This document shows, one piece after another, positions 4,473 through 23,500 of a stretch of DNA of 64,000 bases. The stretch is from an uncultured Candidatus Saccharibacteria bacterium (GTDB lineage: Bacteria; Patescibacteriota; Minisyncoccia; Phycocordibacterales; UBA9973): positions 91,388-155,387 of the forward strand of contig CAZYBS010000001.1 in assembly GCA_964645245.1 (NCBI GenBank). Direction: 5' to 3'. Each line of letters begins with the position of its first letter. The first letter of the stretch is position 1. A model generated the notes under the pieces. That model saw only the letters and a program-made list of their open reading frames with translations. It was not told where the DNA came from and ran no database searches. A program made the position numbers and the translations under genes.

Positions 4473-4554
4473 TTGTCAATATGGGGCTGTGGATAACCCA
4501 AAATGATTAAAAATAGATATTAAGCTATAGTTTTGTTGGAGAGGAGAACACGCA

Positions 4555-4851: not shown

Positions 4852-4857
4852 GTTCAT

Positions 4858-4940: not shown

Positions 4941-5008
4941 GACTTAATACCATAATAACCACGGCCGTTGCTATTATGATATTATATAAAATTTCCAGCT
5001 AGGCAAGC

Positions 5009-6970: not shown

Positions 6971-7813
6971 TCACTTTTTAATTTGGCTGGAAGCCAGGCG
7001 GAGCATTATTTCATGCGTGGCATTTTCAGTCTGGGTGATAATGACCGAAGTATCATCCGCAAAAATATACATCATCACTGTCTTACCATCTTTGTCATAA
7101 AGAATACGCGCATTTTTGTTTTGCACAATATTGTCCTCAAAATTTTTAGTCAGAAGATATTTCGTTTCCGGAGAAATATTAAATCCAAAGAAATCATGCA
7201 AATCAAGAAACATTTTGTTTTCCCAAGCGCGCCAAGAATCGAAAACATCAGCTAGGGAACGCACTTTAAGCAGCATAAAAAAGTCATTGGTATCATTATT
7301 GACAACACCAAGTAAAAAATTATCATTCACAAAATTATCTGGCGGAAAATCTGCCTTTATAAGTTCCATAAATCTTCTGAGCCTTATTATTCTTTTATCG
7401 AAAGTGAGATAAATTCCTTCCACTCCTCCGTTTTTAACTTGCGTTGTATTAACTTCATTTAGAATAGTTTGAACTATTTCGTTTTTACTAAAACCTTTCA
7501 CTTCAAAAAAGGCACTTTGGTCGTTAAAAATAATAGGTACGAATTGTTTTTCCGGCTCAACCGTGTAAATCTCATTTCTGAAAAAGAAAAACAGCAAAAT
7601 GGCAAAAGCGGTCAAAGTTAAGGTTAAACTTGTAAACATGAAAAGTTTGTTCTTTTTTGACTCCGGAGAGTATTGCTCTTTCTCTATTTCATGTTCTTCC
7701 TCCCCGTGAATTATTTTTTTTATTAGTCCTCCCTTGTCATCTTCAATTACCTTGGCCATATCTTCGGCATAGGTTTGCACAATCTTATTTTGCGTTCTGT
7801 TATCTTGCTGCAT
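6971..7813 (-). CDS. Hypothetical single-pass membrane protein
   Basis: One TM (LFMFTSLTLTLTAFAILLFFFF). I chose the start at MQQDN, which ends 2 nt from the pnp stop. The longer listed ORF would overlap pnp by ~100 nt. Confidence 0.45.
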   Translation of the reverse strand: MQQDNRTQNKIVQTYAEDMAKVIEDDKGGLIKKIIHGEEEHEIEKEQYSPESKKNKLFMFTSLTLTLTAFAILLFFFFRNEIYTVEPEKQFVPIIFNDQSAFFEVKGFSKNEIVQTILNEVNTTQVKNGGVEGIYLTFDKRIIRLRRFMELIKADFPPDNFVNDNFLLGVVNNDTNDFFMLLKVRSLADVFDSWRAWENKMFLDLHDFFGFNISPETKYLLTKNFEDNIVQNKNARILYDKDGKTVMMYIFADDTSVIITQTENATHEIMLRLASSQIKK

Positions 7814-7814
7814 A

Positions 7815-10211: not shown

Positions 10212-10724
10212 TTATCTCACTCCAATCAAATATTTTCTGGGATTTTTAGATAAGTCCACAAAATCATCCGCGGCTTCGCGCAGTTTGCCGGATGTCGATT
10301 GGCCGAATGATACGACTTCCACCTGAATACCGGAGTGAATTTTCAGATATTCCACCAACGGCACGAAGTCTCCATCGCCAGAAACCAAAATCACCGCATC
10401 CAATTTAGGCGCCATGGTTATGGCATCAACGGCAATTCCAACGTCCCAATCAGCCTTTTTCATTCCTCCGGCGAAAACTTGCAAATCTTTTGTCTTGGTT
10501 TCAATGCCTAGCTTGGTCAATGCCTCAAAAAAATTCTTTTCATCGCCGGCTTCGGTGGTAATAACATAAGCCACTGCCCGAACCAATCTCCGACCGGCAA
10601 CCGCGTCTTTTAAAACCGCGCCGAAATTTACTCGCGCCTTATATAAATTGCGAGCCGAGTGGTATAAATTTTGAGTATCAATAAAAACTCCAACTCTCTG
10701 TTCCTTATGTTTAATAACGGTCAT
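10212..10724 (-). CDS. NYN-domain (LabA/DUF88-like) predicted ribonuclease
   Basis: VGVFIDTQNLYHSARNL… and …VILVSGDGDFVPLVEYLKIHSGIQVEVVSF match the NYN/LabA motif arrangement. It is inserted between rpsO and pnp. Confidence 0.7.
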   Translation of the reverse strand: MTVIKHKEQRVGVFIDTQNLYHSARNLYKARVNFGAVLKDAVAGRRLVRAVAYVITTEAGDEKNFFEALTKLGIETKTKDLQVFAGGMKKADWDVGIAVDAITMAPKLDAVILVSGDGDFVPLVEYLKIHSGIQVEVVSFGQSTSGKLREAADDFVDLSKNPRKYLIGVR

Positions 10725-10740: not shown

Positions 10741-11004
10741 TTATGCGAGCTCCATTTTCTTCATTAGAGCGTTGTAGCGAGGTTTGCTTGTTCTTTCTAA
10801 ATATTTCAAATGAGTGCGTCGGTCTGCCACCATCTTGATCAGCCCCCGGCGAGAATGATTGTCTTTTTTATGCTTTTTTAAATGCTTGGCTAACTCGTCA
10901 ATAGCGGCAGATATGACCGCCACCTGTACCTCCGGAGAGCCTGTATCTTTATCATGCATCTGATTTTTCTTTATAATCGCTTGCTTTTTCTTGGTTGCTA
11001 ACAT
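10741..11004 (-). CDS. rpsO: 30S ribosomal protein S15
   Basis: 87 aa with the conserved S15 segment HKKDNHSRRGLIKMVADRRTHLKYL. Confidence 0.9.
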   Translation of the reverse strand: MLATKKKQAIIKKNQMHDKDTGSPEVQVAVISAAIDELAKHLKKHKKDNHSRRGLIKMVADRRTHLKYLERTSKPRYNALMKKMELA

Positions 11005-11090: not shown

Positions 11091-11120
11091 ATGTCGCACA
11101 ATATTTGGTACAATTAAAGC

Positions 11121-12071
11121 ATGACATCCCTCAAGCAACTAAAAACTCAATTTTTGGAATATATAGAGATAGAAAAAGGCCGTTCGCTTAATACAGTAGA
11201 GAATTATGATCGTTACCTTGCTCGCTTTTTAAATTTTACAAAAAATGACAACCCTGTAAATATTACTGACACTATGGTGCGTGAATTCCGTTTGTGGCTC
11301 AACCGTCAGACTACCGGCAACAATAGAGCCACTGGGGAGACTTTATCCAAGAAAACTCAAAACTATTACTTAATAGCGTTGCGGGCATTTCTGAAGTATC
11401 TGGCCCGAGAAAATGTTAAGTCTATGCCGGCCGAACGTATAGAGTTGGCGAAAGTTGAAGAAAGGTCTCTTGACTTAATAACCGGCGTGGAATTGAAGAG
11501 GCTTCTGGGGTCACCCAAGGGCAATGACTTAAAAGACCTGCGAGACAAAGCCATCTTGGAACTTTTATTCTCTACCGGGTTGCGTGTTTCAGAATTATGT
11601 TCCCTAACTTCTGACATTGATTTAAGCTCGGAAGAATTATCTGTTCGCGGCAAGGGTGGAAAAGTACGCGTGGTTTTTATATCTTCTGATGCAAAAAATG
11701 CTGTAAAAAATTATTTAGCAGCCCGTAGAGACATGAGCGATGCTCTTTTTGTTCAAACCCCCTCTAACTCCCCCTTATCAGGGGGAGAGGGTTCCCCCCG
11801 CCCTGCGAAGGGAGGGGTTGGAGAGGGTCTGACTCGACGTTCTATAGAAAGAATAGTCAAACAACATGCGATAAAAGCGGGCATTTCGAAAAAAGTAAGT
11901 CCTCATACGTTGCGCCATATGTTTGCGACTGATTTGCTTGGCAACGGCGCTGACTTGCGTTCAGTGCAATCCTTGTTAGGCCATTCTAGTATCACCGCCA
12001 CGCAAATATACACCCACGTCACCGACAAACACTTACGCGATATCCATAAAAAATACCATAATAGAAAATAG
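11121..12071 (+). CDS. Tyrosine recombinase XerC/XerD-like, with an in-frame GC-rich repeat insertion
   Basis: Phage-integrase SAM-like N-domain. Catalytic core contains …GLRVSEL…, …HTLRHMFAT… and …LGHSSITATQIYTHV. The insert PLSGGEGSPRPAKGGVGEG is encoded by repeat DNA at 11758-11830. Confidence 0.85.
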   Translation: MTSLKQLKTQFLEYIEIEKGRSLNTVENYDRYLARFLNFTKNDNPVNITDTMVREFRLWLNRQTTGNNRATGETLSKKTQNYYLIALRAFLKYLARENVKSMPAERIELAKVEERSLDLITGVELKRLLGSPKGNDLKDLRDKAILELLFSTGLRVSELCSLTSDIDLSSEELSVRGKGGKVRVVFISSDAKNAVKNYLAARRDMSDALFVQTPSNSPLSGGEGSPRPAKGGVGEGLTRRSIERIVKQHAIKAGISKKVSPHTLRHMFATDLLGNGADLRSVQSLLGHSSITATQIYTHVTDKHLRDIHKKYHNRK

Positions 12072-12178
12072 TTTTATTCATGAAACATAGTTGCAAAATC
12101 TAATTTGCGTGGTAGGCTTCAAGTTGAGTCACGCTCTTTAGTGGCTCATTAGCAACTCAGTAGCGAAAGGAGTCGCGA

Positions 12179-12376
12179 ATGCGAGCTGCACATATTGCCA
12201 AAAGAAAGTCGCTGAAGAAAGGGGCTGCGAACCGTCTCGGAGTGTCGCTCGATGCGCTGGGGTGGGTTGATGGCCAGCTCATCTTCCTCGCCAGCAACAC
12301 GACAGTGGACGGGATCCCCGTGGTCCCGAAACCCCCCAAACCGACGACGAGTCACAAGCACGGTCGGCACTTCTAA
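12179..12376 (+). CDS. GC-rich small ORF (65 aa), hypothetical; coding status uncertain
   Basis: AAAGGAG ribosome-binding site 7 nt upstream. ~58% GC island. An ORF on the opposite strand overlaps it. Flanked by hairpins at 12125-12152 and 12408-12436. Confidence 0.25.
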   Translation: MRAAHIAKRKSLKKGAANRLGVSLDALGWVDGQLIFLASNTTVDGIPVVPKPPKPTTSHKHGRHF

Positions 12377-12474
12377 TTTAATTGGGCATCGCTGACCGAA
12401 AAACATCACTCCCCTGCCGGGTATCTCGGCGGGGGATCTCACTTTATAGAAACATCTTATGCTACAATTCTTTC

Positions 12475-13257
12475 ATGCGTATTATCAGCTGGAATACAAA
12501 TGGCTTGCGGGCGACGGTGAAACAGGGATTTTTCGCTCCCTTATTTGCGGGCAGACCGGATATTTTATGCTTGCAGGAAACCAAAGCGGAGCCGGAGCAG
12601 TTACCGGAAGAAGTGCGAAATGTGCCCGGGTATTATTCTTATTTTTCGCATCCGAAAGTTAAAAAAGGCTATAGCGGAGTGGCTATTTATTCCAAAGAAA
12701 AATCCAAAGAAGTTTTCTATGGGATGGGCACCCTCCTCGGCGGGCAAGTAAAAAAATTAGACGACGAGGGCAGATTAATCGGCGTCAAGTATAAAGACTT
12801 TACACTTATTAACGTGTATTTCCCAAACGGCGGCCAAGGTCCGCATAGATTGAAATACAAACTGGAATTTTATGAGGCATTTTTGAAATTTATCCTGAAA
12901 TTGCGAAAGGCCGGCGAAAATGTGATTTTCTGCGGGGACGTAAACACCGCCCATACGGAAATAGACCTGGCCCGCCCGAAAGAAAATATTGAAAACACTG
13001 GATTTTTGCCGATTGAACGCGCTTGGATAGATAAAGTGGTGAAAAATAATTTTATAGATGTCTGGAGATATTTTTATCCAAATAAAATTGACGCATATAC
13101 CTATTGGGATATGAAAACTTTTGCCAGGGACAGAAATGTCGGCTGGCGAATGGATTATTTTTTTGCAGACATAAAAATTCTCTCTAAGATCAAAAACACC
13201 GGTACAATCCAGAACTATATGGGTTCGGACCATTGCCCAATTTGGCTGGAAATATAA
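12475..13257 (+). CDS. xth: Exodeoxyribonuclease III (Xth/ExoA family AP endonuclease)
   Basis: MRIISWNTNGLRA…LCLQETK… and …GSDHCPIWLEI are hallmark EEP-fold exonuclease III motifs. The start is taken at the internal Met; the longer listed ORF begins inside a GC-rich hairpin. Confidence 0.85.
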   Translation: MRIISWNTNGLRATVKQGFFAPLFAGRPDILCLQETKAEPEQLPEEVRNVPGYYSYFSHPKVKKGYSGVAIYSKEKSKEVFYGMGTLLGGQVKKLDDEGRLIGVKYKDFTLINVYFPNGGQGPHRLKYKLEFYEAFLKFILKLRKAGENVIFCGDVNTAHTEIDLARPKENIENTGFLPIERAWIDKVVKNNFIDVWRYFYPNKIDAYTYWDMKTFARDRNVGWRMDYFFADIKILSKIKNTGTIQNYMGSDHCPIWLEI

Positions 13258-13339
13258 AATAATTCCTTAATATATCATATATGATGGGTTTAAAAAATAC
13301 TCTGCTACGATATATCGTAGTATAAGGAAAAGTAAATAA

Positions 13340-13380
13340 AAAAAGCCAGCGCTCCCTTCCGGTGTTGCTGGCTTTTCATT
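13340..13380 (-). terminator. Rho-independent terminator (aaagccagc…gctggcttt followed by T7) downstream of the minus-strand small ORF; probably bidirectional for xth
   Basis: Minus-strand reading: AAAGCCAGCaacaccggaagggagcGCTGGCTTTTTTTATTT. Confidence 0.55.
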
Positions 13381-13404
13381 GAGAGGTTGATCAGGACTCT
13401 CAGC

Positions 13405-13656
13405 CTAGGGGTGTGGGATCCAAATCATAGGAGCAGGCAGGGCTTCTTGCGAAGTCTGCCCTTTAACCGCACCGGTAACCGCGAACGCAAACGCCCAGAA
13501 TTCATCTACGAGAGTATCGAGCATTACATATGCTCCGAGTCCCTCAGACAAAGCTCTGACGTGCTGTTCAACGACGCGCTCCAATGCTTCTCTTTTCTCT
13601 GGCGGCAAGTCGGCCAACCAGATGGGCCGCGAACGGAGATCGATTAGTCTGTTCAT
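13405..13656 (-). CDS. GC-rich small protein (83 aa), hypothetical; a LexA box lies ~25 bp upstream
   Basis: AAGAGGAAAA ribosome-binding site. Helical, protein-like sequence (…EKREALERVVEQHVRALSEGLGAYVMLDTLVDEFWAF…). ~55% GC. Has its own terminator. Confidence 0.4.
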   Translation of the reverse strand: MNRLIDLRSRPIWLADLPPEKREALERVVEQHVRALSEGLGAYVMLDTLVDEFWAFAFAVTGAVKGQTSQEALPAPMIWIPHP

Positions 13657-13681
13657 GGTTTTCCTCTTGACTGTTGTAAAG

Positions 13682-13695
13682 GAACCGTTGTTCTG
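13682..13695. promoter_or_regulatory. Second Cheo-type LexA box (GAAC-N4-GTTC)
   Basis: gGAACcgttGTTCtg. It lies between the GC-rich ORF on the minus strand and the divergent TrmB-like gene. Confidence 0.4.
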
Positions 13696-13780
13696 TCGCG
13701 TTATTGCAACAGAATCTTACCCGATTACAATTTATCACTATTTGACAATGATTGATATAGTGTCGTATACTTACGACAAC

Positions 13781-14572
13781 ATGATAGAAAACATCTTAAA
13801 ATCACTTAGTTTCGACGAGGACGAAGTAAAGACATATCTTTACCTTTTAGAACGCGGACCTTTGACTGCTGGCGCTTTGGCAAAAAGTTTAGGCGTCCCT
13901 CGTTCCTCGATATATGGATTTCTAAAACGGCTCGCAGGCGATAACTTGGTGGTGGAGTCTCAAAAAAGCGGGATAAAAATATTTTCCGCTGAATTGCCAG
14001 AAAAAATAAATTTGTTGTTCAGTCAGAAAATGGAAATTTTACAGAAAGCACAAGACGACTACATAAAAATATTACCCGAACTGAAAAGTAAGAAGGGTGA
14101 AAAATATCAAACTCCAAAATTTCAAGTATTTGAGGGTGCGGAAGAATTAAAAAACGCCCTCAAAGACATGCTTTTATATCGTGACATAAAAACTCAAGCC
14201 TACTGGCCACAAAAAAAGATGGTGGAAATTTTGGGTGGAGAATTTTTCCGTTACCATAACCAGGAACGCATCAAAAATAACATTTCAGTACATGCAATTT
14301 GGCCACAACATCAAAAAGTGGAAGTTAAGAACCATCCGTATTTCGGCAGCGGCAAAGAATTTCTGCGTGAAATTCGTATCACTCCCCCAGGTATCGATTT
14401 TCATATGGGTTATTGGATTTATGGCAATAAAATTGTTTTTATTTCATCAACTCAAGAAAGTTTCGGCTTTATAGTACAAAGCCAAGAAATGGCGCAGATG
14501 TTAAAAACACAATTTGAAATCTTGTGGCAAATATCCAGGCCACTTCTAGATAAATCAAGAAAGTTTAACTAA
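13781..14572 (+). CDS. TrmB-family transcriptional regulator (paralog 2; start uncertain, alternatives at 13622 and 13748)
   Basis: wHTH segment SFDEDEVKTYLYLLERGPLTAGALAKSLGVPRSSIYGFLKRLAGDNLVV matches the N-domain of the other two TrmB-like ORFs. Confidence 0.5.
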   Translation: MIENILKSLSFDEDEVKTYLYLLERGPLTAGALAKSLGVPRSSIYGFLKRLAGDNLVVESQKSGIKIFSAELPEKINLLFSQKMEILQKAQDDYIKILPELKSKKGEKYQTPKFQVFEGAEELKNALKDMLLYRDIKTQAYWPQKKMVEILGGEFFRYHNQERIKNNISVHAIWPQHQKVEVKNHPYFGSGKEFLREIRITPPGIDFHMGYWIYGNKIVFISSTQESFGFIVQSQEMAQMLKTQFEILWQISRPLLDKSRKFN

Positions 14573-14642
14573 TTCCGGCTTCACTTTCCCGCCGGACCAC
14601 TGCCCGGTTTGGATTGAATTATAATTATGTTATAATCTAGCT

Positions 14643-14897
14643 ATGGTTAAAAAGGCGACAATAAAAACTAAATACGGCCCCTTTCATTGTGTCTTTGAAC
14701 CCGAAAAGGATATGGGCGGGTACACAGCCGAGGCTCGCGATGTGCAAGGCGCAGTTTCTTGGGGTAAAAACTTAAATGAGGCAAAAAAAATGATTGCGGA
14801 AGCAATCGAAGGGATAATTGAAGCTGAAGCTGTTTACCAAGCACAAAAATCCGGCTTGGTGCGTATAATAAACAAAAAACTTCCTCACTTTGCATGA
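14643..14897 (+). CDS. hicB: HicB-family antitoxin (UPF0150)
   Basis: YGPFHCVFEPEKDMGGYTAEARDVQGAVSWGKNLNEAKKMIAEAIEGIIEA matches the HicB/UPF0150 fold pattern. Its stop overlaps the hicA start as ATGA. Confidence 0.65.
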   Translation: MVKKATIKTKYGPFHCVFEPEKDMGGYTAEARDVQGAVSWGKNLNEAKKMIAEAIEGIIEAEAVYQAQKSGLVRIINKKLPHFA

Positions 14898-15115
14898 GTA
14901 TTCTGCCTATTCTAGTCGCTCGCGTAGTCATGACGAAGCTAATCAGGGCTGGTTTTCGGTATGTTGGCACGAAAGGCAGCCACTACATCTTCAAAAATTT
15001 TATAAATGGGCGACGCACTTCTGTGCCCTATCACAGTAAAACAATAGGCCGCGGATTGCTAAGCAAGATCATCAAGCAAGCCGGACTTACGGTCAAACAG
15101 TTTCTGGATCTTTAG
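14894..15115 (+). CDS. hicA: HicA mRNA-interferase toxin
   Basis: …LIRAGFRYVGTKGSHYIFKN…TSVPYHSKTIGRGLLSKIIKQAGL… is the YcfA/HicA signature, including KGSH and P-H. Confidence 0.7.
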   Translation: MSILPILVARVVMTKLIRAGFRYVGTKGSHYIFKNFINGRRTSVPYHSKTIGRGLLSKIIKQAGLTVKQFLDL

Positions 15116-15136
15116 ATTGTGTGTTATATTACTGTT

Positions 15137-15799
15137 ATGTCTCACACACGCCTAGACCAGCTTTCGGACGGAATTTTTGCCATCGTGATGACGATTCTGG
15201 TTTTTGAAATTAAAGTGCCGGTCATTTGGGGACCGGTAGACAACTTAGGGCTCTGGTTTGAAATTAAAAAATTGCTTCCACCTTTTTTGAGCTACGTCTT
15301 ATCTTTCACCCTGCTCTTCACCTATTGGCGGGCACACCATTTTTTCGTTTCTATCTACGCGAAAAATGTGGACAGCATGCTCACGAATATCAATGCACTC
15401 TTTTTTATGCTTGTTTCTTTGGTGCCTTTTTCCGCCAGTGTTTTGGGTCAATTTCCGGAAAATGAATTATCTATTATCATCTTCGGCGCGCATATAATTT
15501 TAATCGGCCTTACTCTATACTGGATGCGCAGATATGTGCTTTACTCAGAACACATCAAAAATCCGGAAATCAGCAAAAGAGAAATTCGCGGCAGCACCAT
15601 CCGCACTTTAGTGCCCGTATTTTTCGCCCTCATCGCCATCCCCTTATCTTTTTGGAATATAAAAATTTCCCTGACCCTATTTACCTTGGCGGTAATTTTC
15701 AATCTCTTCTCTTATAGCAGCCGCCTTTTTGAAAATATAATGAAAGCAATCCATCACGCCCTTTTTGGCGCCGACACCAAAGGCCACTTTGCGGATTAA
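15137..15799 (+). CDS. DUF1211/TMEM175-family membrane protein (putative K+ channel-like)
   Basis: N-terminal signature RLDQLSDGIFAIVMTILVFEI, followed by ~6 TM segments. Confidence 0.6.
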   Translation: MSHTRLDQLSDGIFAIVMTILVFEIKVPVIWGPVDNLGLWFEIKKLLPPFLSYVLSFTLLFTYWRAHHFFVSIYAKNVDSMLTNINALFFMLVSLVPFSASVLGQFPENELSIIIFGAHIILIGLTLYWMRRYVLYSEHIKNPEISKREIRGSTIRTLVPVFFALIAIPLSFWNIKISLTLFTLAVIFNLFSYSSRLFENIMKAIHHALFGADTKGHFAD

Positions 15800-16584
15800 A
15801 AAGCTTTTTTTAACTCCTGACTTAACCGTTTTGCTTCAGGCCAGGCAAGTTCAAAAGCTTTTTTCATAGCATCGGCGATTTCCCGGCTTTCTATGATAAT
15901 TCCTAATTTTTCCTTCCAGGAAGCGATCATCACTTTATTGTCATAAATATTTATCTCCGGAGAAAAATAATATTTGTCAGCCGGGACCAGGGCTGACTCG
16001 CGAGCTTCTTTATTATCTTCTTTGGCGCGTTCAAATCCCGCTTCGTTAGTGGGGAAAATTGCCCTGATAGAAATCCCCTTATTAGTCCGGCGCTTATAAT
16101 AAAGGGGGAAGTAATGCGGCAGAGCTTCATGCATCTCGCTCACATTAGCATAGGCTCTGATGGTTTCATGAGACGAAAGCGTATCCTCATAAACTTTTTC
16201 CAAGCCCTCTTTCCCTTCGTAGAATAAAACCTTCGGTCTGTCTGCCACATTGTGCATTGATTTTAATTCGGGAATTATTTTTCTCGCTTCTTTTATAAAT
16301 GCCTGGTCATTTTCAACTTTCTGCAAGAGCATTTTCTCAATTTGGTCGGGAGACTCTGCCACATATTCCTGCTTGGGCTCTTTGCCGGAAACCCTGACCA
16401 GCCCTTTCACTTCGAGCGAATCCAAGATGTGATATCCAGTCGGGCGATTAATCCCCGCTTTGCGGGAAATAACCGTAACCGTGCCTTTTCCTAAAGAAAG
16501 CAGTGCTAAATATACCAAAACTTCTTTCTCGGAAAATCCGATATGTTCTAAAGTTTTTTTAAAATCCAAATTTTCATTTCTCAT
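15796..16584 (-). CDS. TrmB-family transcriptional regulator (paralog 3)
   Basis: Aligns along its whole length with the ORF at 2806..3597 (…GKEPKQEY.AESP…IPELKSMHNV.DRPKV.FYEGKEGLEKVYEDTL…EINIYDNKVMIASW…). Confidence 0.6.
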   Translation of the reverse strand: MRNENLDFKKTLEHIGFSEKEVLVYLALLSLGKGTVTVISRKAGINRPTGYHILDSLEVKGLVRVSGKEPKQEYVAESPDQIEKMLLQKVENDQAFIKEARKIIPELKSMHNVADRPKVLFYEGKEGLEKVYEDTLSSHETIRAYANVSEMHEALPHYFPLYYKRRTNKGISIRAIFPTNEAGFERAKEDNKEARESALVPADKYYFSPEINIYDNKVMIASWKEKLGIIIESREIADAMKKAFELAWPEAKRLSQELKKAF

Positions 16585-16792
16585 ATTATAAGTATATTAC
16601 AAAAGCTATAAATTTGTCAATAGCGACGAACAAAATTAGTGTTAATTACTTTTAACCTTGTAAAAAGGCTAGTTTCCTGCACTTTTTTGTTCGTAATGCT
16701 TGACATTATGTTTCTAATATGCTATGCTTGTCTCAGATATTAGAACTGTCCTTCGTAAACCTTTTTGCGCTTAATTGCGCGGGAGAAAGACC

Positions 16793-17215
16793 ATGAAACA
16801 AGAAGTTATTTTTGTCACAGCCCCCACGAGCAACCCGAATGAGGAGGCTGGTTCCCGTCAGGTCATCAATGCCTGCAATGAACTTGAGGTGGAGCTTCTG
16901 ACACGAGCCATTGAGGAGCACACACCAACGTTCAAGAGTAACAATGTGCTGGCCCTCATCACCAAGAAGGTCATTCACACCGTTCGCCATGAGTGTCCAT
17001 GTTGTTATCCCGTTCTAACGGCTCTAGTTGAAGTGACTTGTATTAATCTTCACTGGACCGAAGATCAGAGAACAGTTTCGGGACTATACAAGGTCAGTAT
17101 TGGACCCGAGGCGATGGGTGGTGGTCCCACAAAGATTACTGTGACAAAGCTCGCTGTCACAGAAACGGTGATCTTTGAAGAGGCCATCGCCGGGCATCCT
17201 CTCCGTAGAAGATAG
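16793..17215 (+). CDS. GC-rich hypothetical protein (141 aa), divergent from the TrmB paralog
   Basis: GGGAGAAAG ribosome-binding site. ~50% GC island. Contains CPCC. Followed by hairpins at 17255-17285 (gaggcgag…ctcgcctc). Confidence 0.4.
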   Translation: MKQEVIFVTAPTSNPNEEAGSRQVINACNELEVELLTRAIEEHTPTFKSNNVLALITKKVIHTVRHECPCCYPVLTALVEVTCINLHWTEDQRTVSGLYKVSIGPEAMGGGPTKITVTKLAVTETVIFEEAIAGHPLRRR

Positions 17216-17368
17216 AGGATAAAACGTAAGTCCGCGCGTCAGCCGGACACATCGAGGCGAGCTTATTTCATAACTCGCCTCAACTGTAGCAAAGTATTTG
17301 CTTTGCCTGATGAGCTCAAAAGAGCGAAACGGATTATTAGTGATATAATTAATTTAATATATTCATAC

Positions 17369-17394
17369 CAGATAGCGCCTAAGGCGCTATCTGG
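17369..17394. promoter_or_regulatory. Perfect 12-3-12 palindrome CCAGATAGCGCCtaaGGCGCTATCTGG overlapping the ribosome-binding site of the Cys-rich ORF
   Basis: Read directly from the sequence. A related palindrome occurs at 43169-43224. Confidence 0.5.
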
Positions 17395-17402
17395 AGAAAG
17401 TT

Positions 17403-19121
17403 ATGCAAAAGAACTGCAAAAATTGTAAAAAAGATTTTGAAATAGACAAGGAGGATTTGGATTTTTACGAGAAAATGAAAGCGCTGGCGCCAAATTATTG
17501 CCCGCCCTGCCGAATGGCGCGCCGGCTTTGCTTTCGCAACGAAAGGACTTTGTATAAAAGAACTTGCAGTAAAAGTGGAAAGCAAGTAATTTCTATCTAT
17601 CCGGAAAACACTCCCTTCCCCGTCTACGACCAGCATGTTTGGTGGGGCGATGAATGGGATGCGATAGATTACGGACAGGATTATAAACCCAATCGCTCAT
17701 TTTTTGAACAATTTTTAGAACTAAAAAATAAAGTTCCAAGAATTTCGCTTCTTAATATAAACTCAGTAAATAGCGAATATTGCAACAACGTTGAGGACCA
17801 TAAAAATTGCTATTTAGTCTTTGCCGCCCAATTAAATGAAGACTGCATGTACGGGCGATTGATGTACAGGAATAAATTTGCCGTTGATTCCGATTTTATC
17901 CAGGATTCCGAGCTTTGCTATGAATGCATAGACTCTCGCAAATGCCACAAATGCCTATACTCGGAAAATTGCGAAGCCTGCATTGACCTCCTGTTTTGCT
18001 TTGATATGCGCGACTGCCAGAATTGCATATTTTCCACCAATTTGAGGCATAAAAAATATCATATTTTTAACCAGCCAGTCTCTAAAGAAGAATATGAGCA
18101 AAAGAAAAAAGAAATTTTCTCTTCTTATGCAAAATTGGAGGAGGCCGAAAAAGAATTTGAGGACTTGAAAAAGCTTGGGCTGGTGAAATTTTCCCACCAG
18201 GTAAAATGCAAAAATGCTACCGGCGATTATATGTACAATTGCCACGACGTGGTACGAGGCTTTGACACAGAAGATGCGAAAAATTGCAAATATGTTGCCG
18301 ATGCCGAAGGCCCAATTGATTCCTATGACCTGAACAATACTTACTATAAACCAGAACTGTGTTTAGACTCAATGGGCATGCTACAAACGTATAATGTTAA
18401 ACACTGCGCATATACTCTATACTCAAGCAACTCGGAATATTGCGACAGTTTGAATAATTCCGACAGCTGTTTCGGCTGTGTCGGATTGAAAAAGAAAAAG
18501 TATTGTATTTTGAATAAGCAATATAGCAAAGAAGAGTATGAAAAACTAAAGGAGCAGATTATAGAAAGCATGAAGAAAGAGGGTGTGTATGGAGATTTTT
18601 CACCACCTTCACTTTCTCCTTTCGGTTACAACGAAACCTTAGCAATGGAATATTTTCCGATGAGTGAAAAAGAAGCCAAGGAAAAGAATTTTAATTGGCA
18701 AAAAGAAACAAGCGGCACATACGGCAAGGAAACTATTAAAGAAGAAAATATGCCGCAAACTATCGAAGAGGTTACGGAAGACCCGCCTGACGGACGGGCA
18801 GGCATTTTAAATCAAGTATTGGTCTGCAAAGACTGCAAAAAGAATTTCCGCATCACCAAGTCCGAATTTGATTTTTATAAGAGGATGAATATCCCCCTCC
18901 CCCATAAAGATTTCGAGTGCCGGCATCAGGACCGAATGAAAAAGCGCAATCCCCGCCAGCTTTGGCGCCGCGCTTGTATGTGTGGTTCGGCAGGCTCACC
19001 ACAGGCGACTGCAAATCACGGCCATGAAGGTAAATGCTTGAATGAATTCGAAACCTCCTATTCTCCTGACCGCCCGGAGACAGTCTATTGCGAAACCTGC
19101 TACCAGCAGGAAGTTTCTTAA
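17403..19121 (+). CDS. Cys-rich multi-zinc-ribbon protein, hypothetical
   Basis: 572 aa. N-terminal CKNCKK…CPPC and C-terminal CKDCKK…C.H ribbons. More than 12 internal CxxC / C-x-C pairs at ~11-17-aa spacing. No family recognised. Confidence 0.55.
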   Translation: MQKNCKNCKKDFEIDKEDLDFYEKMKALAPNYCPPCRMARRLCFRNERTLYKRTCSKSGKQVISIYPENTPFPVYDQHVWWGDEWDAIDYGQDYKPNRSFFEQFLELKNKVPRISLLNINSVNSEYCNNVEDHKNCYLVFAAQLNEDCMYGRLMYRNKFAVDSDFIQDSELCYECIDSRKCHKCLYSENCEACIDLLFCFDMRDCQNCIFSTNLRHKKYHIFNQPVSKEEYEQKKKEIFSSYAKLEEAEKEFEDLKKLGLVKFSHQVKCKNATGDYMYNCHDVVRGFDTEDAKNCKYVADAEGPIDSYDLNNTYYKPELCLDSMGMLQTYNVKHCAYTLYSSNSEYCDSLNNSDSCFGCVGLKKKKYCILNKQYSKEEYEKLKEQIIESMKKEGVYGDFSPPSLSPFGYNETLAMEYFPMSEKEAKEKNFNWQKETSGTYGKETIKEENMPQTIEEVTEDPPDGRAGILNQVLVCKDCKKNFRITKSEFDFYKRMNIPLPHKDFECRHQDRMKKRNPRQLWRRACMCGSAGSPQATANHGHEGKCLNEFETSYSPDRPETVYCETCYQQEVS

Positions 19122-19234
19122 AGTTTTTAAAATGAAACTTTTGAAGGGGTTTCGAGGCTGGCGAGCCGAGAACTTCAGGATTTTTTAAGCTTCAAAAAAT
19201 CCGTACCGGAAAAAGTTTGTATTTTAAAAACTTA

Positions 19235-20932
19235 TTATTTCCTCACTCCATGCTTAACGTGCAGCTTTTCTATCTCCTCTTCTTCTAGTTCTTCCTTTTT
19301 CTCTTTTCCGCGTTCGCCCAGAGCTCGGAGCTCGGCATCACCAAGCATATTTAGAGATTTAGCCAGTTCGGAGAGGTGTTCCACGGTATTTTTCTCCGGC
19401 GCATCCAACACTTCTTCTAAGAGCGCGTGCAGAATCCAGCCCATTCTGGGTCCCGGCGCAATTTTCAATTCTTTCATCATAAATTCCCCGTTAATTTTCA
19501 GCTGACCGACAGAAATCGGGTCACGCAGCGCTTCTTCTATCATCGCAAAATATTTCCGCAGGCGATAGGGCGCTTCTTTTTTCTTCATGCCAACCCTATC
19601 ACACTCACGCACGCTCATTAGGAGCCAAATATTTTCTACACCTACTTTGGTAATAATTCTGCGCACCGCGGAAAGCGTTATTAATTCCGTATCGGAAAAA
19701 AACATATGATTGCGCACAAGCTTGGATACTAATTCAATTTCCTTTCTGGGAAATTTTAATCTTTCCATTATTTTTTTCGCCATTCGCGCGCCGATAACTT
19801 CATGGCCGTAAAAAGTATATTTCTTTTTAGTAGCTCCGCCAGTAAACAATTTATCAGGTCCTCGGAAAAAATCCCCAGACCGTGCTAAATTGTTCACCGG
19901 CTTCGCTACTTGGGCGGAGTTTGGGTGCTTTTGTGAAGGACCGACGTTGCGAAGCAGGAGATCCTGAGCAGAAGCACCAGACGATGCCAGTCTTCGTGTT
20001 CTGGGCTTCCCAATATCGTGCATCAGCGCGGCCAGTCTGATTTCAAGCGGCCAATTTTTATCTGCGGCATGCTGTACTGCGTGAAGTAAATGGTCCCAGA
20101 CATCATAAATATGTTCACCCAACTGCTTGCAACCTATCCCCTCCTCCAGTTCCGGAATAATATTTTTCAACAGTCCAAATTTTTGTAGCATTACAATTCC
20201 CATGGCAGGATTTGGCGACATAATTATTTTTACCAATTCATCACGAATCCTTTCGGCGGATATTTCTTCTATTAAGCTTGAATTCTTTAAAATATTCTCC
20301 GAAGTTTCATATGACACAGAAAAATTAAGTTGGCAAGCGAAGCGTACAGCCCGTATCATTCTCAAAGCATCTTCTTCAAAACGATCATTCGGAACCCCTA
20401 CCGCTCTTAAAGTTTTATTTTCAATGTCCTTTAGACCTCCATATAAATCTACCAAGTGTCCGTTAGGATGTCCTTTATGAATGCTGAATGCCATGGCATT
20501 TACAGTGAAATCACGTCTTTTAAGGTCATCTTCTAACTTATCACTGAATTTAACCTCATCCGGATGCCTAAAATCACCATATTTTGCTTCAATCCTGTAA
20601 GGAGTGACCTCAACAACAAAATTGGGTTCTAGGTTAGAGGTTCTAGGTTCTAGTGTTTCTTGTGAAACATTATTCTGTGACATTTCACGTGGAACTATGA
20701 CCCCTACAGTACCAAAAGCATTCTCGTAGACCGTCTTTTCGAAAAGACTAATAATTTGTTCTGGTTTAGCATTTGTTGTAACATCCCAATCTTTGGGTTC
20801 TATCCCCATCAAAAGATCACGAACACAGCCGCCAACTAGATAGGCTTCAAAACCGGCTTTCTCGAGTATATCCGTTACATGTGAAACCTCTTTGGGTATT
20901 TTTGGTATTAAATTTTTAGTATTTGGTTCCAC
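19235..20932 (-). CDS. cca: CCA-adding enzyme / tRNA nucleotidyltransferase with HD domain, carrying repeat-encoded inserts
   Basis: Pol-beta-type head (LVGGCVRDLLMG…DWDV) and an HD domain (LAALMHDIGKP). In-frame CTAGAACC-type and GACGTTGCGAAGCAGGAGATCCTGAG repeat copies. Confidence 0.8.
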   Translation of the reverse strand: MEPNTKNLIPKIPKEVSHVTDILEKAGFEAYLVGGCVRDLLMGIEPKDWDVTTNAKPEQIISLFEKTVYENAFGTVGVIVPREMSQNNVSQETLEPRTSNLEPNFVVEVTPYRIEAKYGDFRHPDEVKFSDKLEDDLKRRDFTVNAMAFSIHKGHPNGHLVDLYGGLKDIENKTLRAVGVPNDRFEEDALRMIRAVRFACQLNFSVSYETSENILKNSSLIEEISAERIRDELVKIIMSPNPAMGIVMLQKFGLLKNIIPELEEGIGCKQLGEHIYDVWDHLLHAVQHAADKNWPLEIRLAALMHDIGKPRTRRLASSGASAQDLLLRNVGPSQKHPNSAQVAKPVNNLARSGDFFRGPDKLFTGGATKKKYTFYGHEVIGARMAKKIMERLKFPRKEIELVSKLVRNHMFFSDTELITLSAVRRIITKVGVENIWLLMSVRECDRVGMKKKEAPYRLRKYFAMIEEALRDPISVGQLKINGEFMMKELKIAPGPRMGWILHALLEEVLDAPEKNTVEHLSELAKSLNMLGDAELRALGERGKEKKEELEEEEIEKLHVKHGVRK

Positions 20933-20934
20933 TT

Positions 20935-21447
20935 TTATTTTGTGCGCCCGGCAGGAATCGAACCCACATCACTCGTTCCGAAGACGAGCACTCTATCCGT
21001 TGAGCTACGGGCGCTTTTATTTTTAAACCAATTAAATACTTGTGCTGTTTTTCTTCTATGACAATTAGCACATCGAACTTCACACTTGTCAATTTCCTTC
21101 TGAATTTTATCAATAGGAAAGTGTGCCCTAGCTAATTGAGAAACTGCCTTCAATTTTGGAACTATTCCCTTATGATCAAATTCCAAAACTGTAACATCTG
21201 ATTCACCACAGTCAACACAAGGGTTTTTTAATAAATGCTGACACAAAAACACATTTACCTTGTCACGTAAGGTTTTATTACGTTTTCTGGCTTTCAATAA
21301 ATAATATTGACGATTACTATTATAATGGTTTCTAATTAATAAGCGAGTACACTCTTTGCATTGTCGATGTCTTAACCCTGTAGCTTTTATTTTAAAGCTA
21401 AATTCACTGAGCGATTTTTCCTTTTTACACTTAGAACATTTTTTCAT
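20935..21447 (-). CDS. HNH endonuclease with an N-terminal zinc ribbon; the ORF reads through tRNA-Arg on the same strand
   Basis: CVDCGESDVTVLEFDHKGIVPKLKAVSQLARAHFPIDKIQKEIDKCEVRCANCHRRKT is a canonical HNH (ββα-Me) motif. The last ~25 codons are encoded by the tRNA gene. Confidence 0.55.
   Translation of the reverse strand: MKKCSKCKKEKSLSEFSFKIKATGLRHRQCKECTRLLIRNHYNSNRQYYLLKARKRNKTLRDKVNVFLCQHLLKNPCVDCGESDVTVLEFDHKGIVPKLKAVSQLARAHFPIDKIQKEIDKCEVRCANCHRRKTAQVFNWFKNKSARSSTDRVLVFGTSDVGSIPAGRTK
20942..21013 (-). tRNA. tRNA-Arg (anticodon UCG), no encoded CCA
   Basis: Manually folded: acceptor GCGCCCG/CGGGCGC, anticodon stem CTCGT/ACGAG, loop CTTCGGA, T-loop TTCGATT. Confidence 0.7.
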
Positions 21448-21547
21448 TACGGATACATTTTATCACATATAGTTTCGGAAAACAAGAAAATTCCGAAGAT
21501 GTTTATTGCATAAATAATGTGGAAATAATATAATAGGTCAGCTTATC

Positions 21548-21618
21548 GCGGTCATAGTTTAGTGGCAGAACACGATCTTGCCAAGATTGAGGCGCGGTTT
21601 CGATTACCGCTGGCCGCA
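21548..21618 (+). tRNA. tRNA-Gly (anticodon GCC), no encoded CCA
   Basis: Acceptor GCGGTCA/TGGCCGC (one G·U pair), anticodon stem CGATC/GATTG, loop TTGCCAA, T-arm GCGGT-TTCGATT-ACCGC. Confidence 0.75.
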
Positions 21619-21855
21619 CAAAAGTAATGTCCATTATCAAAAATGCTAATCCCTATAAATTAAGGATATTATAGCTAAAAATGTGGATAACTATGTTGGT
21701 AATGTTTATAAAGGACATTAAGATAACTTGTCTTTTACAACTTTTTTATATAAAATATGTTGATAAATAAGGATATATTAATAAAAGACATAAAATTAAG
21801 TATAAAGTTTCACATGAAACATATTTGATTATGTTATTCGTGAAACACACCAAAT

Positions 21856-22266
21856 ATGCCTAAAGTATTTACATCAGAGAAACAAAAAATAGGAGAAATT
21901 GGTGAAAATATAGCCGTAAAGTTTCTCGTGAAACAGGGCTTTTCAATATTAGATCGAAATTATACTAAAAAATGGGGTGAAATAGACATTATAGCTGAAA
22001 AAGATAATAAATTATATTTCATTGAAGTTAAGTCTGTATCAAGGTTGAACCTTGACGACGTTTCACAAGAAACGTTGGACCAATACAATCCGGAAGATAA
22101 TATGCACCCCTGGAAATTAAAAAGGCTCTCAAGGACAATTCAAACTTATCTCTTATCTAGGAATGTCCCTGAAGAAAAAGAATGGCAATTTGACCTTTTG
22201 ATTGTCTTTTTGAGTCTAAAGGACAAAAATGCCAAAATCAAAGTAGTCAAGGATATAATTTTGTGA
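21856..22266 (+). CDS. yraN: YraN-family (UPF0102) predicted endonuclease
   Basis: GEIGENIAVKFLVKQGFSILDRNYTKKWGEIDIIAEKDNKLYFIEVKSV matches the UPF0102 core. Confidence 0.65.
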   Translation: MPKVFTSEKQKIGEIGENIAVKFLVKQGFSILDRNYTKKWGEIDIIAEKDNKLYFIEVKSVSRLNLDDVSQETLDQYNPEDNMHPWKLKRLSRTIQTYLLSRNVPEEKEWQFDLLIVFLSLKDKNAKIKVVKDIIL

Positions 22267-22315
22267 CCCATTCGACAGGCTCAGGGTCATGGTGAATAAA
22301 ATTGAACCATGATAT
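22263..22315. repeat. Repeated hairpin element (gacccattc…GGGTCATGGTGA-loop-GAACCATGA), copy 1
   Basis: Nearly identical to 32137-32190. 8-bp stem TCATGGT/ACCATGA with a 12-nt loop. Confidence 0.55.
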
Positions 22316-22332
22316 ACTCCAAAATATTTTGA

Positions 22333-22403
22333 CGGGCCGTAGTATACCGGTAGTACAAGTGCTTTGGGAGCATTTAGACTGGGTTCAATTCCCAGCGGCC
22401 CGA
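22333..22403 (+). tRNA. tRNA-Pro (anticodon GGG) with a C1:G72 pair, no encoded CCA
   Basis: Acceptor CGGGCCG/CGGCCCG, U8, anticodon stem GTGCT/AGCAT, loop TTGGGAG, T-arm CTGGG-TTCAATT-CCCAG. Confidence 0.7.
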
Positions 22404-22417
22404 ACGTTATTTGATTT

Positions 22418-22488
22418 GCGGGATTAGTTTAGTGGTAAAACGTCAGTTTTCCAAACTGAGGTTGGGAGTTCGATTCTCCCATCCCGCA
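22418..22488 (+). tRNA. tRNA-Gly (anticodon UCC), no encoded CCA
   Basis: Acceptor GCGGGAT/ATCCCGC, anticodon stem TCAGT/ACTGA, loop TTTCCAA, T-arm GGGAG-TTCGATT-CTCCC. Confidence 0.8.
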
Positions 22489-22545
22489 CAAATTTTTATT
22501 TGACTAAAATCTTCAGAGTTGTAGTATTTAACTGGAGGCACACCA

Positions 22546-22665
22546 TGTCACAGCAATTGACCGATGAGGAACAGATGGCGCGATCGGGTCCCATTGTGGG
22601 ACTTGTGATCCTCGTCGGTATCGGGCTGCTTCTCTGGGGCGCTTGGGTCGCATGGACCCGCTGAT
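22546..22665 (+). CDS. GC-rich micro-ORF (39 aa) encoding a single-TM peptide, hypothetical
   Basis: GGAGG ribosome-binding site 7 nt upstream. MSQQLTDEEQMARSGPIVGLVILVGIGLLLWGAWVAWTR. Followed by hairpin gggcggg…ccccgccc and a T-run at 22672-22730. Too short to appear in the ORF track. Confidence 0.3.
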
Positions 22666-22750
22666 GTGGCGAAGAAAGAACGAGGGCGGGAAGTCGAAAA
22701 ATATCTCGACACACCCCGCCCTCAAGCTTTTTAAAATCAAAAAATAATTT

Positions 22751-23500
22751 ATGATCACAACATACATTTATGCTCTCATAAGCGTCATAATAGTTAGCTT
22801 AGTGTCATTGGTTGGAGTTTTTGCGCTTTCTTTAAAAGAAGAAATTTTAAGAAAATATATTTTCATTTTTATCAGTTTAGCTGTTGGCGCGCTTTTGGGA
22901 GACGCTTTCATTCATCTCATTCCCAAGGCTTTAGAAAATTCCCCGAACATTAGCCTAACTAGCACGCTTATTATCACTGGCATTCTGATTTTTTTTATTT
23001 TGGAAAAATTTCTGCACTGGCACCATCACGGAGAGGATAAGGAAGAAACACATATTCATCCAGTCGGGAAATTAGTGCTCTTTTCGGATGGCGTGCACAA
23101 CTTTATTGACGGCATGATCATCGGAGCAAGTTTTATTCTAAGCATCCCGATAGGCATCGCCACGACTATAGCCGTAATCCTGCATGAAATCCCTCAAGAA
23201 ATAGGGGACTTTGCGGTGCTCCTGCATTCCGGTTATTCAAAAACGCGCGCATTATGGCTAAACTTTCTTTCGGCGCTCCTCGCAGTTTTGGGACTTTTTG
23301 TTCTTTCTATCTTAAATCAAACAGAACGAGTTGTAACTCTATATTTTCTGCCAATCGCCGCTGGAGGATTTATTTATATTGCATTGGCTGACTTAATACC
23401 TGAACTGCATAAGACAAAGGAAATAAAATATTCCGTCTTGCAACTCCTGGCAGTCATAATTGGAGTCTTGGCAATGTTTGCTTTGACTTTACTTGAATAA
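22751..23500 (+). CDS. ZIP-family divalent metal transporter (ZupT-like)
   Basis: His-rich loop (HWHHHGEDKEETHIHP) and HEIPQEIGDFAVL, the ZIP signature. Confidence 0.8.
   Translation: MITTYIYALISVIIVSLVSLVGVFALSLKEEILRKYIFIFISLAVGALLGDAFIHLIPKALENSPNISLTSTLIITGILIFFILEKFLHWHHHGEDKEETHIHPVGKLVLFSDGVHNFIDGMIIGASFILSIPIGIATTIAVILHEIPQEIGDFAVLLHSGYSKTRALWLNFLSALLAVLGLFVLSILNQTERVVTLYFLPIAAGGFIYIALADLIPELHKTKEIKYSVLQLLAVIIGVLAMFALTLLE

Follow-up and report, generated by a model that had tools for sequence, protein, structure and literature searches.

Five small GC-rich islands, each carrying one short open reading frame (ORF), lie among the genes of the 2.8-23.5 kb region of a 64,000-nucleotide stretch of DNA (the window, here and below) from an uncultured groundwater bacterium of the Parcubacteria group. 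The islands appear to be stand-alone coding units, which could be demonstrated directly for island 2. Taking the evidence as a whole, the explanation that we find on balance probable is that they are unrelated accessory genes for small proteins, each led by a Shine-Dalgarno (SD) motif, and that they make up neither a LexA/SOS module nor a module of the TrmB-type proteins encoded nearby. A preliminary description of the same DNA had paired the islands with these regulators, and had suggested that they are horizontally acquired cargo which may form a small stress/SOS-linked module. Genomes of the Candidate Phyla Radiation (CPR)/Patescibacteria are rich in unannotated small genes, and the regulation of gene expression in these organisms is little understood. 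Our literature searches found no account of GC-rich, SD-led small genes amid leaderless native genes.

Five GC-rich units

The five units comprise the following features (coordinates are those of the window; CDS, coding sequence; aa, amino acids; nt, nucleotides).

4535-4945, plus strand: island 1 unit; CDS 4555-4851, 98 aa, with an N-terminal hydrophobic helix
4540-4548, plus strand: island 1 SD motif, GGAGAGGAG
about 4860-4945, plus strand: island 1 nested GC-rich hairpin with a T-rich tail (unit fold z = -3.57)
12091-12435, plus strand: island 2 unit; CDS 12179-12376, 65 aa
12091-12096 and 12110-12118, plus strand: island 2 promoter, TTGCAA and TGGTAGGCT
between promoter and CDS, plus strand: island 2 leader, about 52-55 nt, conserved, with SD AAGGAG
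12411-12435, plus strand: island 2 terminator hairpin
13343-13700, minus strand: island 3 unit; CDS 13405-13656, 83 aa, with SD AGAGGA just upstream
13343-13372: bidirectional terminator common to island 3 and the exonuclease III (ExoIII) gene
16700-17283, plus strand: island 4 unit; CDS 16793-17215, 140 aa, with SD GGGAGA
16700-16728, plus strand: island 4 promoter, TTGACA-17-TATGCT
17230-17248 and 17254-17281, plus strand: island 4 hairpins, without a U-tract
22500-22732, plus strand: island 5 unit; CDS 22545-22664, 39 aa, a single hydrophobic helix
22500-22527, plus strand: island 5 promoter, TTGACT-16-TAGTAT
22534-22538 and 22682-22732, plus strand: island 5 SD (GGAGG) and terminator

The peptides of islands 1 to 5 are annotated as hypothetical proteins (TSC78015, 78007, 78005, 77999 and 77994, respectively) on a 220,949-bp contig of the metagenome-assembled genome (MAG) 'Parcubacteria group bacterium Gr01-1014_24', and all five are singletons among 90% clusters. 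Independently assembled Logan contigs from run SRR8863434 cover every island together with its flanks at 100% identity (L012 for island 1, L013 for island 2, L001 for islands 3 and 4, and L014 for island 5). Since these contigs cross every island junction, a chimeric assembly, the artefact for which a check had been advised, is excluded. An origin from miniature inverted-repeat transposable elements or other repeats was likewise ruled out, as no island has further copies within the window.

With a GC content of 0.515, 0.591, 0.540, 0.496 and 0.592, islands 1 to 5 stand well apart (z = 2.3-4.7) from the native genes, for which the mean is 0.403, the standard deviation 0.040 and the maximum 0.467 (n = 53 genes of the window, for each of which the first start that follows a stop was taken mechanically as the start codon). 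Ordinary intergenic gaps have 18-36% GC. The existence of five GC-rich small ORFs, as first reported, was thus borne out, with four of the five sets of coordinates exact and the fifth displaced by one base (22545-22664, not 22546-22665). An SD-like motif at the proper distance was found in all five, again as described. So was a GC-rich hairpin 3' of each ORF, although the claim that each unit has a terminator-like hairpin of its own needs qualifying: the hairpins of island 4 have no U-tract and the terminator of island 3 is shared with ExoIII. Islands 1 and 5 each encode one hydrophobic helix, which agrees with the earlier count of two single-transmembrane products.

All five ORFs show the codon-position pattern GC1 > GC2 < GC3, where the digits denote the codon position. 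What is unusual is that whole small genes are of high-GC composition, not the occurrence of GC-rich stretches per se; stretches as strong as the islands are found in the interiors of the ComM and PNPase genes. At four-fold degenerate sites, islands 3 and 4 (0.51 and 0.53) show no GC bias when set against ExoIII (0.48), and they must therefore be GC-rich mainly through their amino-acid composition.

The five products are mutually unrelated, and searches of Pfam, PHROGs, NCBIfam and PADLOC gave no match to any of them above the noise, the top one being that of island 2 to DUF6474 (E = 0.027), in keeping with the earlier statement that none resembles a known family. Pfam likewise had no match to the antisense ORFs of the five islands. 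For islands 1, 3 and 4, a word-indexed search of 5.8 billion protein clusters returned the query itself only, and phage collections yielded no match; for islands 2, 3 and 4, there was none in plasmid collections or in IMG/VR.

Island 2 and its relatives

Related loci, designated by L-numbers, were collected by two routes: through clusters of neighbour genes, and through a metagenome scan with the adjacent Xer-type recombinase (XerC) as the query, which gave 80 loci of about 1 Mb in total at 66-81% identity. Five other lineages have island 2, four of them in the same slot between XerC and ExoIII, and most relatives lack it. Four of its orthologs (L016-19) lie in the order XerC-gene-ExoIII, three more (L102-104) have XerC upstream and ExoIII downstream, and two (L015 and L100) have ExoIII downstream; L101 alone has a different context. 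A full-sensitivity HMMER search with the island 2 protein returned 36 homologs at E<=1e-3, of 60-118 aa and 40-68% identity, which share the motif RRKxLKKxAAxRLGVxxxxLGWxDGxLxFLxxxxxVxGVPxVPKP and define a family of at least 36 members. Those with names belong to Patescibacteria or to MAGs classified no further than 'bacterium'. Scanning metagenomes with the alignment of island 2 gave no match.

The unit aligns from end to end between lineages, through a promoter of the form TTGCAA ... TGnTAnnCT, a leader with the SD GGAG, the CDS and a terminator, the stems of which show compensatory changes between lineages as expected of terminators. The TGnTACAAT promoter that restarts transcription at ExoIII aligns as well and always accompanies the unit. 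Differences between orthologs are distributed as 26/14/33 over the three codon positions. The nonsynonymous divergence (dN) is 0.36-0.50 and the synonymous divergence (dS) 1.4-1.7, giving a dN/dS of about 0.25, and in the flanking genes dS is saturated. Judged by these substitutions, island 2 is under purifying selection and is a bona fide conserved protein gene.

An AlphaFold model built from a 31-sequence alignment (pLDDT, the predicted local distance difference test score, 87.5) has a helix at residues 2-20 and a beta-hairpin at 27-36, so that the protein would consist of a basic N-terminal helix, a beta-hairpin and a proline-rich tail. The fold had no match in the PDB or in BFVD, and no member of the family had a match in Pfam. 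Together with the codon pattern and the dN/dS ratio, this confident model runs counter, as far as island 2 is concerned, to the idea, which had been named as what would overturn the preliminary description, that the islands are non-coding. By sequence and by position, then, island 2 is the founder of an undescribed small-protein family of the Patescibacteria, with a fixed address between XerC and ExoIII.

The composition of island 2 is shared by its orthologs, which have a GC content of 0.52-0.66 against 0.35-0.46 in the flanks and a GC3 of 0.6-0.8 against 0.3-0.55. Although individual codons turn over, G or C occupies 77% of the four-fold sites of the family (n=269), as against 48% of those in the ExoIII genes next to it (n=267). 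Since the GC content has been kept in spite of a dS of 1.4-1.7, it is actively maintained, and is no fading trace of a recent import. In a tree of ExoIII, the loci that bear island 2 are interspersed with relatives in which the junction is 2-4 bp, which points to a patchy unit, either an old gain followed by losses or one exchanged among relatives.

The possibility that island 2 is an integron-like cassette of the adjacent recombinase was set aside by eye. The recombinase is a backbone gene that all 80 relatives possess, whether or not they have the island 2 unit, and the unit has its own promoter and a hairpin that behaves as a terminator.

Translation initiation in native genes and islands

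The islands also differ from the native genes in the sequences preceding their start codons. An SD-like match of at least 4 nt precedes the ORF in 5/5 islands and in 5/53 native genes, compared with 15.6% of random positions (hypergeometric p for islands versus natives about 5.5e-5, from the counts). A -10 box just before the start codon is a signature of leaderless mRNAs. Such a box (TAYRMT, with its end 4-11 nt upstream of the start codon) was found in 12 of the 53 native genes, at 1.8% of random positions and in none of the five islands. Native examples include XerC, ExoIII and the genes for the second and third of three TrmB-type proteins (TrmB2 and TrmB3), and the arrangement can be seen, for example, at 11106-11120, 12460-12474, 13766-13780 and 16585-16596. 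In islands 2, 4 and 5, a predicted sigma-70-type promoter would have transcription begin about 17-65 nt upstream of the ATG. Most native genes, to go by these motifs, appear leaderless or SD-less and the islands SD-led. GC-rich small ORFs with a strong SD were also seen in relatives, namely in the island 2 family and in L023, L041, L057, L074 and L082.

Insertions into a conserved backbone

The order of genes around the islands is conserved. In relatives, the backbone runs through ComM, PNPase, NYN, S15 (minus strand), XerC (plus), ExoIII (plus), TMEM175 (plus), in some cases TrmB3 (minus), a gene for a 572-aa protein (plus) and the CCA-adding enzyme (minus), and continues with tRNAs, UPF0102, tRNA-Pro, tRNA-Gly and the Zip transporter. 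Since the junctions at which the islands lie are tight or different in relatives, all five can be read as insertions into this backbone, the junctions concerned being in our interpretation lexA-ComM, XerC-ExoIII, ExoIII-TMEM175, TrmB3-572-aa gene and tRNA-Gly-Zip.

Island 1 sits between the lexA promoter with its DnaA box and the ComM stop codon, a spacer of about 100 bp in L031 and L037, which in the window is longer by about 450 bp, corresponding to island 1. The XerC-ExoIII gap measures 2-25 bp in about 24 relatives without island 2. ExoIII abuts TMEM175 in L023, L048 and L066; in the window, an insertion at 13258-15118 contains island 3, TrmB2, HicB and HicA, and relatives have no ortholog of any of these. 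The spacer between TrmB3 and the 572-aa gene, where island 4 lies, is AT-rich and 140-440 bp long in relatives. No clear promoter was found upstream of island 1 or of island 3. For island 4, the AlphaFold model from the single sequence was uninformative (pLDDT 37). None of about 100 related loci has island 1, 3 or 4; these islands are orphans in lineage-specific insertions, and all three may have been acquired recently.

Zip directly follows tRNA-Gly in L054, and the island 5 unit is absent there, in L004 and in about 17 other relatives (about 19 in total). L023 has a counterpart in the same slot after tRNA-Gly(tcc), with the same TTGACT-16-TAGTAT promoter, a strong SD and a terminator, and with an ORF of 57 aa that has 57% GC and a GC3 of 71%. 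In both ORFs, a charged N-terminus precedes a single hydrophobic helix; the two peptides do not align.

Two further observations concern these junctions. In L023 (17394-17518), the final 19 nt of tRNA-Gly(tcc) recur 106 nt beyond the tRNA, immediately ahead of the island-5-like unit; this repeat may be an integration scar. The XerC-ExoIII junction (12072-12474 in the window) is a hot spot, as seen in L006, L045, L086, L067 and L075; besides island 2, its occupants in relatives include Fic with HTH_17, an S-adenosylmethionine (SAM) methyltransferase, an ORF6N/Rha-like protein and unrelated ORFans.

A proposed accessory layer of small genes

These data are consistent with the view that the five islands are unrelated, independently transcribed small-protein genes (39-140 aa), with two membrane-anchored products, which would belong to a lineage-variable accessory layer of small genes found throughout the clade. 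The units would be old insertions that have been gained, lost or exchanged among related Parcubacteria, as opposed to fresh imports of high GC content. Being GC-rich, strongly folding and SD-dependent, their transcripts could follow a regime of translation and mRNA stability apart from that of bulk leaderless translation. The islands are short, without known domains, patchy and placed between housekeeping genes, with an SD-like motif and a hairpin of their own, and in these respects they resemble lineage-specific small ORFans. They differ from the usual small ORFans in being consistently far GC-richer than their host, in having SD leaders amid leaderless-looking genes and, for island 2, in retaining GC across near-saturated divergence.

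Several observations weigh against this interpretation. The length of the ORF exceeds that expected from dinucleotide shuffles in island 4 (P=0.004) and island 1 (P=0.019), but not significantly so in islands 3 (P=0.066), 2 (0.26) and 5 (0.44). Islands 1, 3 and 4 are without a homolog, so that for them the coding case consists of the ORF, the SD-like motif and codon-position GC. Opposite island 1 lies an antisense ORF (4525-4962, minus strand, 142/145 aa) that is longer than the sense ORF, also in statistical terms, and that a different pipeline annotated as the gene, so that the coding strand of this island is not proven. Since native starts were assigned mechanically, the figure of 5/53 may understate the use of SD motifs in native genes, and taking the best alternative native starts gives 18/53 with an SD of at least 4 nt. 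The whole-unit fold z-scores against dinucleotide shuffles (-3.6, -2.1, -1.1, -3.9 and -4.4 for islands 1 to 5) take in the terminator hairpins. Finally, an RNAalifold analysis of six island 2 sequences, in which the SD pairs with the invariant CTC-GG of the RLG codons, showed a leader hairpin retained through wobble changes alone, and the covariation term of +0.77 gives no real support for a specific mRNA structure.

GC-rich islets in genomes of this kind should not be taken without further ado for recent transfers or for noncoding RNAs (ncRNAs), island 2 being an old conserved protein gene that keeps its GC content. Were the contrast between leaderless and SD-led genes to hold genome-wide, it would open a way into the study of translational control in organisms that so far cannot be grown on their own. 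It is a further-reaching and to our minds doubtful proposal that the clade keeps a distinct class of GC-rich, strongly folding, SD-led small genes at fixed junctions of an AT-rich, largely leaderless genome, with both composition and initiation mode under selection, as a two-channel expression system. If true, an ultra-small symbiont would operate one SD-dependent channel, working through the 30S subunit and gated by structure, next to the bulk leaderless one, with the island 2 family as the most conserved member of the class.

Alternative explanations

One alternative is that the islands are recent cargo from a donor of higher GC content, such as a host, a partner organism or a mobile element, and that their composition has yet to approach that of the recipient. 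We consider this unlikely, even though it accounts for the deviating GC (z of 2.3-4.7), for SD-led units that are out of place in a leaderless genome, and for the absence of islands 1, 3 and 4 from related loci. It would also suit island 3, which lies beside the HicAB toxin-antitoxin pair and beside TrmB2, the paralog to which the closest proteins come from unrelated MAGs. As in horizontally acquired islets, the composition deviates, the units are inserted relative to relatives, and island 5 is near a tRNA, island 2 near a tyrosine recombinase and island 3 near a toxin-antitoxin pair. In contrast to such islets, the units are only 200-550 bp long; the adjacent XerC-type gene is backbone; and no integrase, attachment (att) repeats, insertion sequences, other mobility genes or repeat signatures were found, nor any copies elsewhere in the window. 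No donor was identified among protein clusters and phages (islands 1, 3 and 4) or in IMG/VR and plasmids (islands 3 and 4). Island 2 is orthologous across lineages, old, syntenic and still GC-rich. Furthermore, islands 2, 4 and 5 have native-type promoters, which in the case of 2 and 5 are conserved, and the four-fold GC of islands 3 and 4 is ordinary. The earlier suggestion of horizontally acquired cargo is therefore upheld as regards insertion and foreign-looking composition, but not as regards a recent high-GC donor.

A second possibility, which we regard as improbable, is that some of the islands (the most plausible candidates being 5, 3 or 1) encode structured ncRNAs or dual-function RNAs and have ORFs that are by-products of GC-richness. 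GC-rich islands in AT-rich genomes are a classic signature of ncRNAs. The islands resemble GC-rich ncRNA genes in lying within AT-rich intergenic DNA and in the strongly negative fold z of three of the five (-4.4, -3.9 and -3.6 for islands 5, 4 and 1). The antisense ORFs and the ORF lengths of islands 2, 3 and 5, which do not differ significantly from chance, point the same way, as does the pair formed by island 5 and L023, in which the peptides cannot be aligned while the promoter is conserved. On the other hand, Rfam 15 detected, at its gathering thresholds, no families other than tRNAs and nothing within the islands even at E<=1. Island 2 is clearly coding, with substitutions in a codon pattern and a confidently predicted fold, and the covariation term for its leader and core (+0.77) does not speak for a conserved RNA. 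An SD-like motif and an ATG occur with correct spacing in all five islands, the ORF of island 4 is significantly long (P = 0.004), and the ORFs of island 5 and L023 both encode a charged N-terminus and one hydrophobic helix.

More improbable still, in our estimate, is that island 5, and possibly island 1, encodes a type I toxin-like membrane peptide whose structured mRNA blocks translation until a trigger is received. Stress-induced small membrane proteins include the LexA-controlled TisB of E. coli. Like type I toxin loci and stress membrane peptides, islands 5 and 1 are stand-alone units with single-helix peptides and highly structured mRNAs. The island 5 peptide, at 39 aa, falls below the 60 aa expected of such toxins and consists of a single helix with a maximum 17-residue hydropathy of 2.61; its transcript is the most strongly folded of the five, with the AUG region paired to the stop-codon region; and the unit, patchily distributed, keeps to one intergenic slot beside a tRNA. 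Unlike in type I toxin loci, no antisense RNA gene could be demonstrated (the minus strand has only a weak 9/12 promoter-like match at 22551-22523), and there is no duplication. Neither homology to known toxin families nor sequence similarity to such loci and peptides was detected, no functional LexA box was found, and the products of islands 2, 3 and 4 are soluble.

The LexA operator and the TrmB-type paralogs

The proposed link to SOS and TrmB regulation depends on the following features (wHTH, winged helix-turn-helix).

2806-3597, plus strand: TrmB-type wHTH paralog 1 (TrmB1), 263 aa; PF01978, E = 1.7e-15
3594-4160, minus strand: LexA; PF00717, E = 1.6e-29; TIGR00498, 126.4 bits (cut-off 110.95)
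4153-4359, minus strand: conserved 68-aa ORF (orf68), first gene of the lexA operon; no family assignment
4479-4450, minus strand: lexA-operon promoter TTGACA-18-TATACT, serving orf68 and lexA
4455-4474, minus strand: LexA operator AAGTGAACGAGCGTTCACTT, a perfect palindrome in the spacer of the lexA-operon promoter
4488-4496, minus strand: DnaA-box-like TGTGGATAA, a perfect match just upstream of the lexA-operon -35
13682-13693: GAACCGTTGTTC (GAAC-N4-GTTC), 25 nt from the island 3 start codon
13742-13771, plus strand: TrmB2 leaderless-type promoter TTGACA-18-TATACT
13781-14572, plus strand: TrmB-type wHTH paralog 2 (TrmB2), 263 aa; PF01978, E = 2e-13; true start ATG 13781
15796-16584, minus strand: TrmB-type wHTH paralog 3 (TrmB3), 262 aa; PF01978, E = 1.3e-15
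16620-16591, minus strand: TrmB3 leaderless-type promoter

The LexA operator of the clade, AGTGAACGAGCGTTCACT, is a 9+9 palindrome embedded in the promoter of the lexA operon and is kept in L031, L033, L037 and L060. Across these four loci and the window, the operator GTGAACGAGCGTTCAC is identical or nearly so. In each of the four it is always followed by the DnaA-box-like TGTGGATAA, and a counterpart of orf68 (65-82 aa, beginning MSQKQY or MLQTQYLK) is the first gene of the operon. From this arrangement, the operator at 4455-4474 is predicted to regulate the minus-strand lexA operon and not island 1.

The site at 13682 had been reported as a second LexA box. The GAAC-N4-GTTC pattern is indeed present there, although as a LexA operator it does not hold up: only GAAC and GTTC are in common with the clade operator, and the site departs from it at each of the four conserved flanking positions. 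In the window, the pattern is present three times against 0.63 expected, a number reached by 3/100 shuffles, and 15 times in the 1.03 Mb of window and relatives, where five occurrences are lexA promoters and two belong to a conserved codon context in PNPase. Given these counts, a second box at 13682 is not beyond chance.

That there are three full-length TrmB-type wHTH paralogs, as originally described, was confirmed with PF01978. TrmB1 and TrmB3 are 63.5% identical, and TrmB2 is about 30% identical to either. Against the TrmB/TrmBL equivalogs of NCBIfam, the three score 21-44 bits (cut-offs 500-650) with about the first 130 residues covered, and Pfam had no match to their C-terminal halves. 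As the match is limited to the N-terminal winged-helix region, they are best described as TrmB-type HTH proteins and not as demonstrated TrmB orthologs.

Their pairing with the islands, which the preliminary description had pointed out, is not conserved in relatives. Orthologs of TrmB3 at 75-77% identity occupy the same slot in L029 and L097, which makes TrmB3 a semi-conserved backbone gene, and no island-4-like partner was found beside the TrmB3 orthologs of L029, L097, L049, L060 and L066. TrmB2 has no ortholog in the 80 related loci and is lineage-specific; a scan of a genome collection gave two distant, non-syntenic loci only (44% and 38% identical, in unrelated MAGs), neither with a divergent small ORF in its neighbourhood. 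TrmB1 is not beside lexA in L037, where 2.6 kb are available on that side; in L031, L033 and L060 the sequence is too short there. We found nothing linking the five units to one another or to the LexA and TrmB-type regulators.

It is thus very improbable that the units form an SOS or stress module under LexA and the TrmB paralogs: the GAAC-N4-GTTC site upstream of island 3, the divergent orientation of islands 3 and 4 to TrmB paralogs and the nearness of island 1 to lexA suggest one, but the site lacks the flanking operator positions and occurs at chance frequency, the genuine operator serves lexA, the TrmB pairings are not conserved and the five products are unrelated. The analysis thereby removes an unsupported 'second LexA box / SOS module' annotation.

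Gene map and further elements of the region

The gene map of the 2.8-23.5 kb region, built with Pfam and NCBIfam, is completed by the following features.

5009-6565, minus strand: ComM
6573-6935, minus strand: DksA/TraR-type protein
6971-7912, minus strand: 313-aa protein
7815-10031, minus strand: PNPase
10212-10724, minus strand: NYN protein
10741-11004, minus strand: S15
11121-12071, plus strand: Xer-type tyrosine recombinase (XerC), 316 aa; not a regulator
12460-12468, plus strand: ExoIII promoter TGCTACAAT, in a leaderless-type arrangement with the start ATG at 12475-12477
12475-13257, plus strand: exonuclease III
14643-15115, plus strand: HicB and HicA
15119-15799, plus strand: TMEM175 channel
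17403-19121, plus strand: 572-aa protein
19235-20932, minus strand: CCA-adding enzyme
20942-21619: tRNA-Arg(tcg) on the minus strand and tRNA-Gly(gcc) on the plus strand
21856-22266, plus strand: UPF0102
22333-22489, plus strand: tRNA-Pro and tRNA-Gly(tcc)
22751-23500, plus strand: Zip transporter

The S15-XerC junction, which is 116 bp long in the window, is filled in several relatives by a family of two-helix membrane proteins of 77-95 aa, the genes of which are GC-rich and mostly SD-led (L040 750-1037, L041 139-372, L042 3383-3616 and L057 9378-9623). In L006, a homolog of TMEM175 at 4645-5438, with 72-75% nucleotide identity, has been called as fragments of 62 and 75 aa and may be a pseudogene.

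Two further elements recur in the window or in relatives. A CCTCCCC-loop-GGGGAGG hairpin with a G-rich tail, TGGGTAGGGGTAA, is repeated in the window at 4381-4432, about 32338-32373 and about 55945-55990, and the element is also found upstream of rpsO (S15) in L006-L011. The ruvB-ruvC spacer (55787-55985, 199 bp, 51% GC) contains one of these copies together with further CCTCC/GGAGG hairpins. Between the convergent genes for the 572-aa protein and the CCA-adding enzyme lies an element of about 75 nt at 19139-19214, GGGGTTTCGAGG...AACTTCAGGATTTTTTAAGCTTCAAAAAATCCGTACCGG. It is found again downstream of ComM in L031/L037 and, at 93% identity, between the HU and RNase Y genes of L006, and may represent a mobile terminator or else a small RNA.

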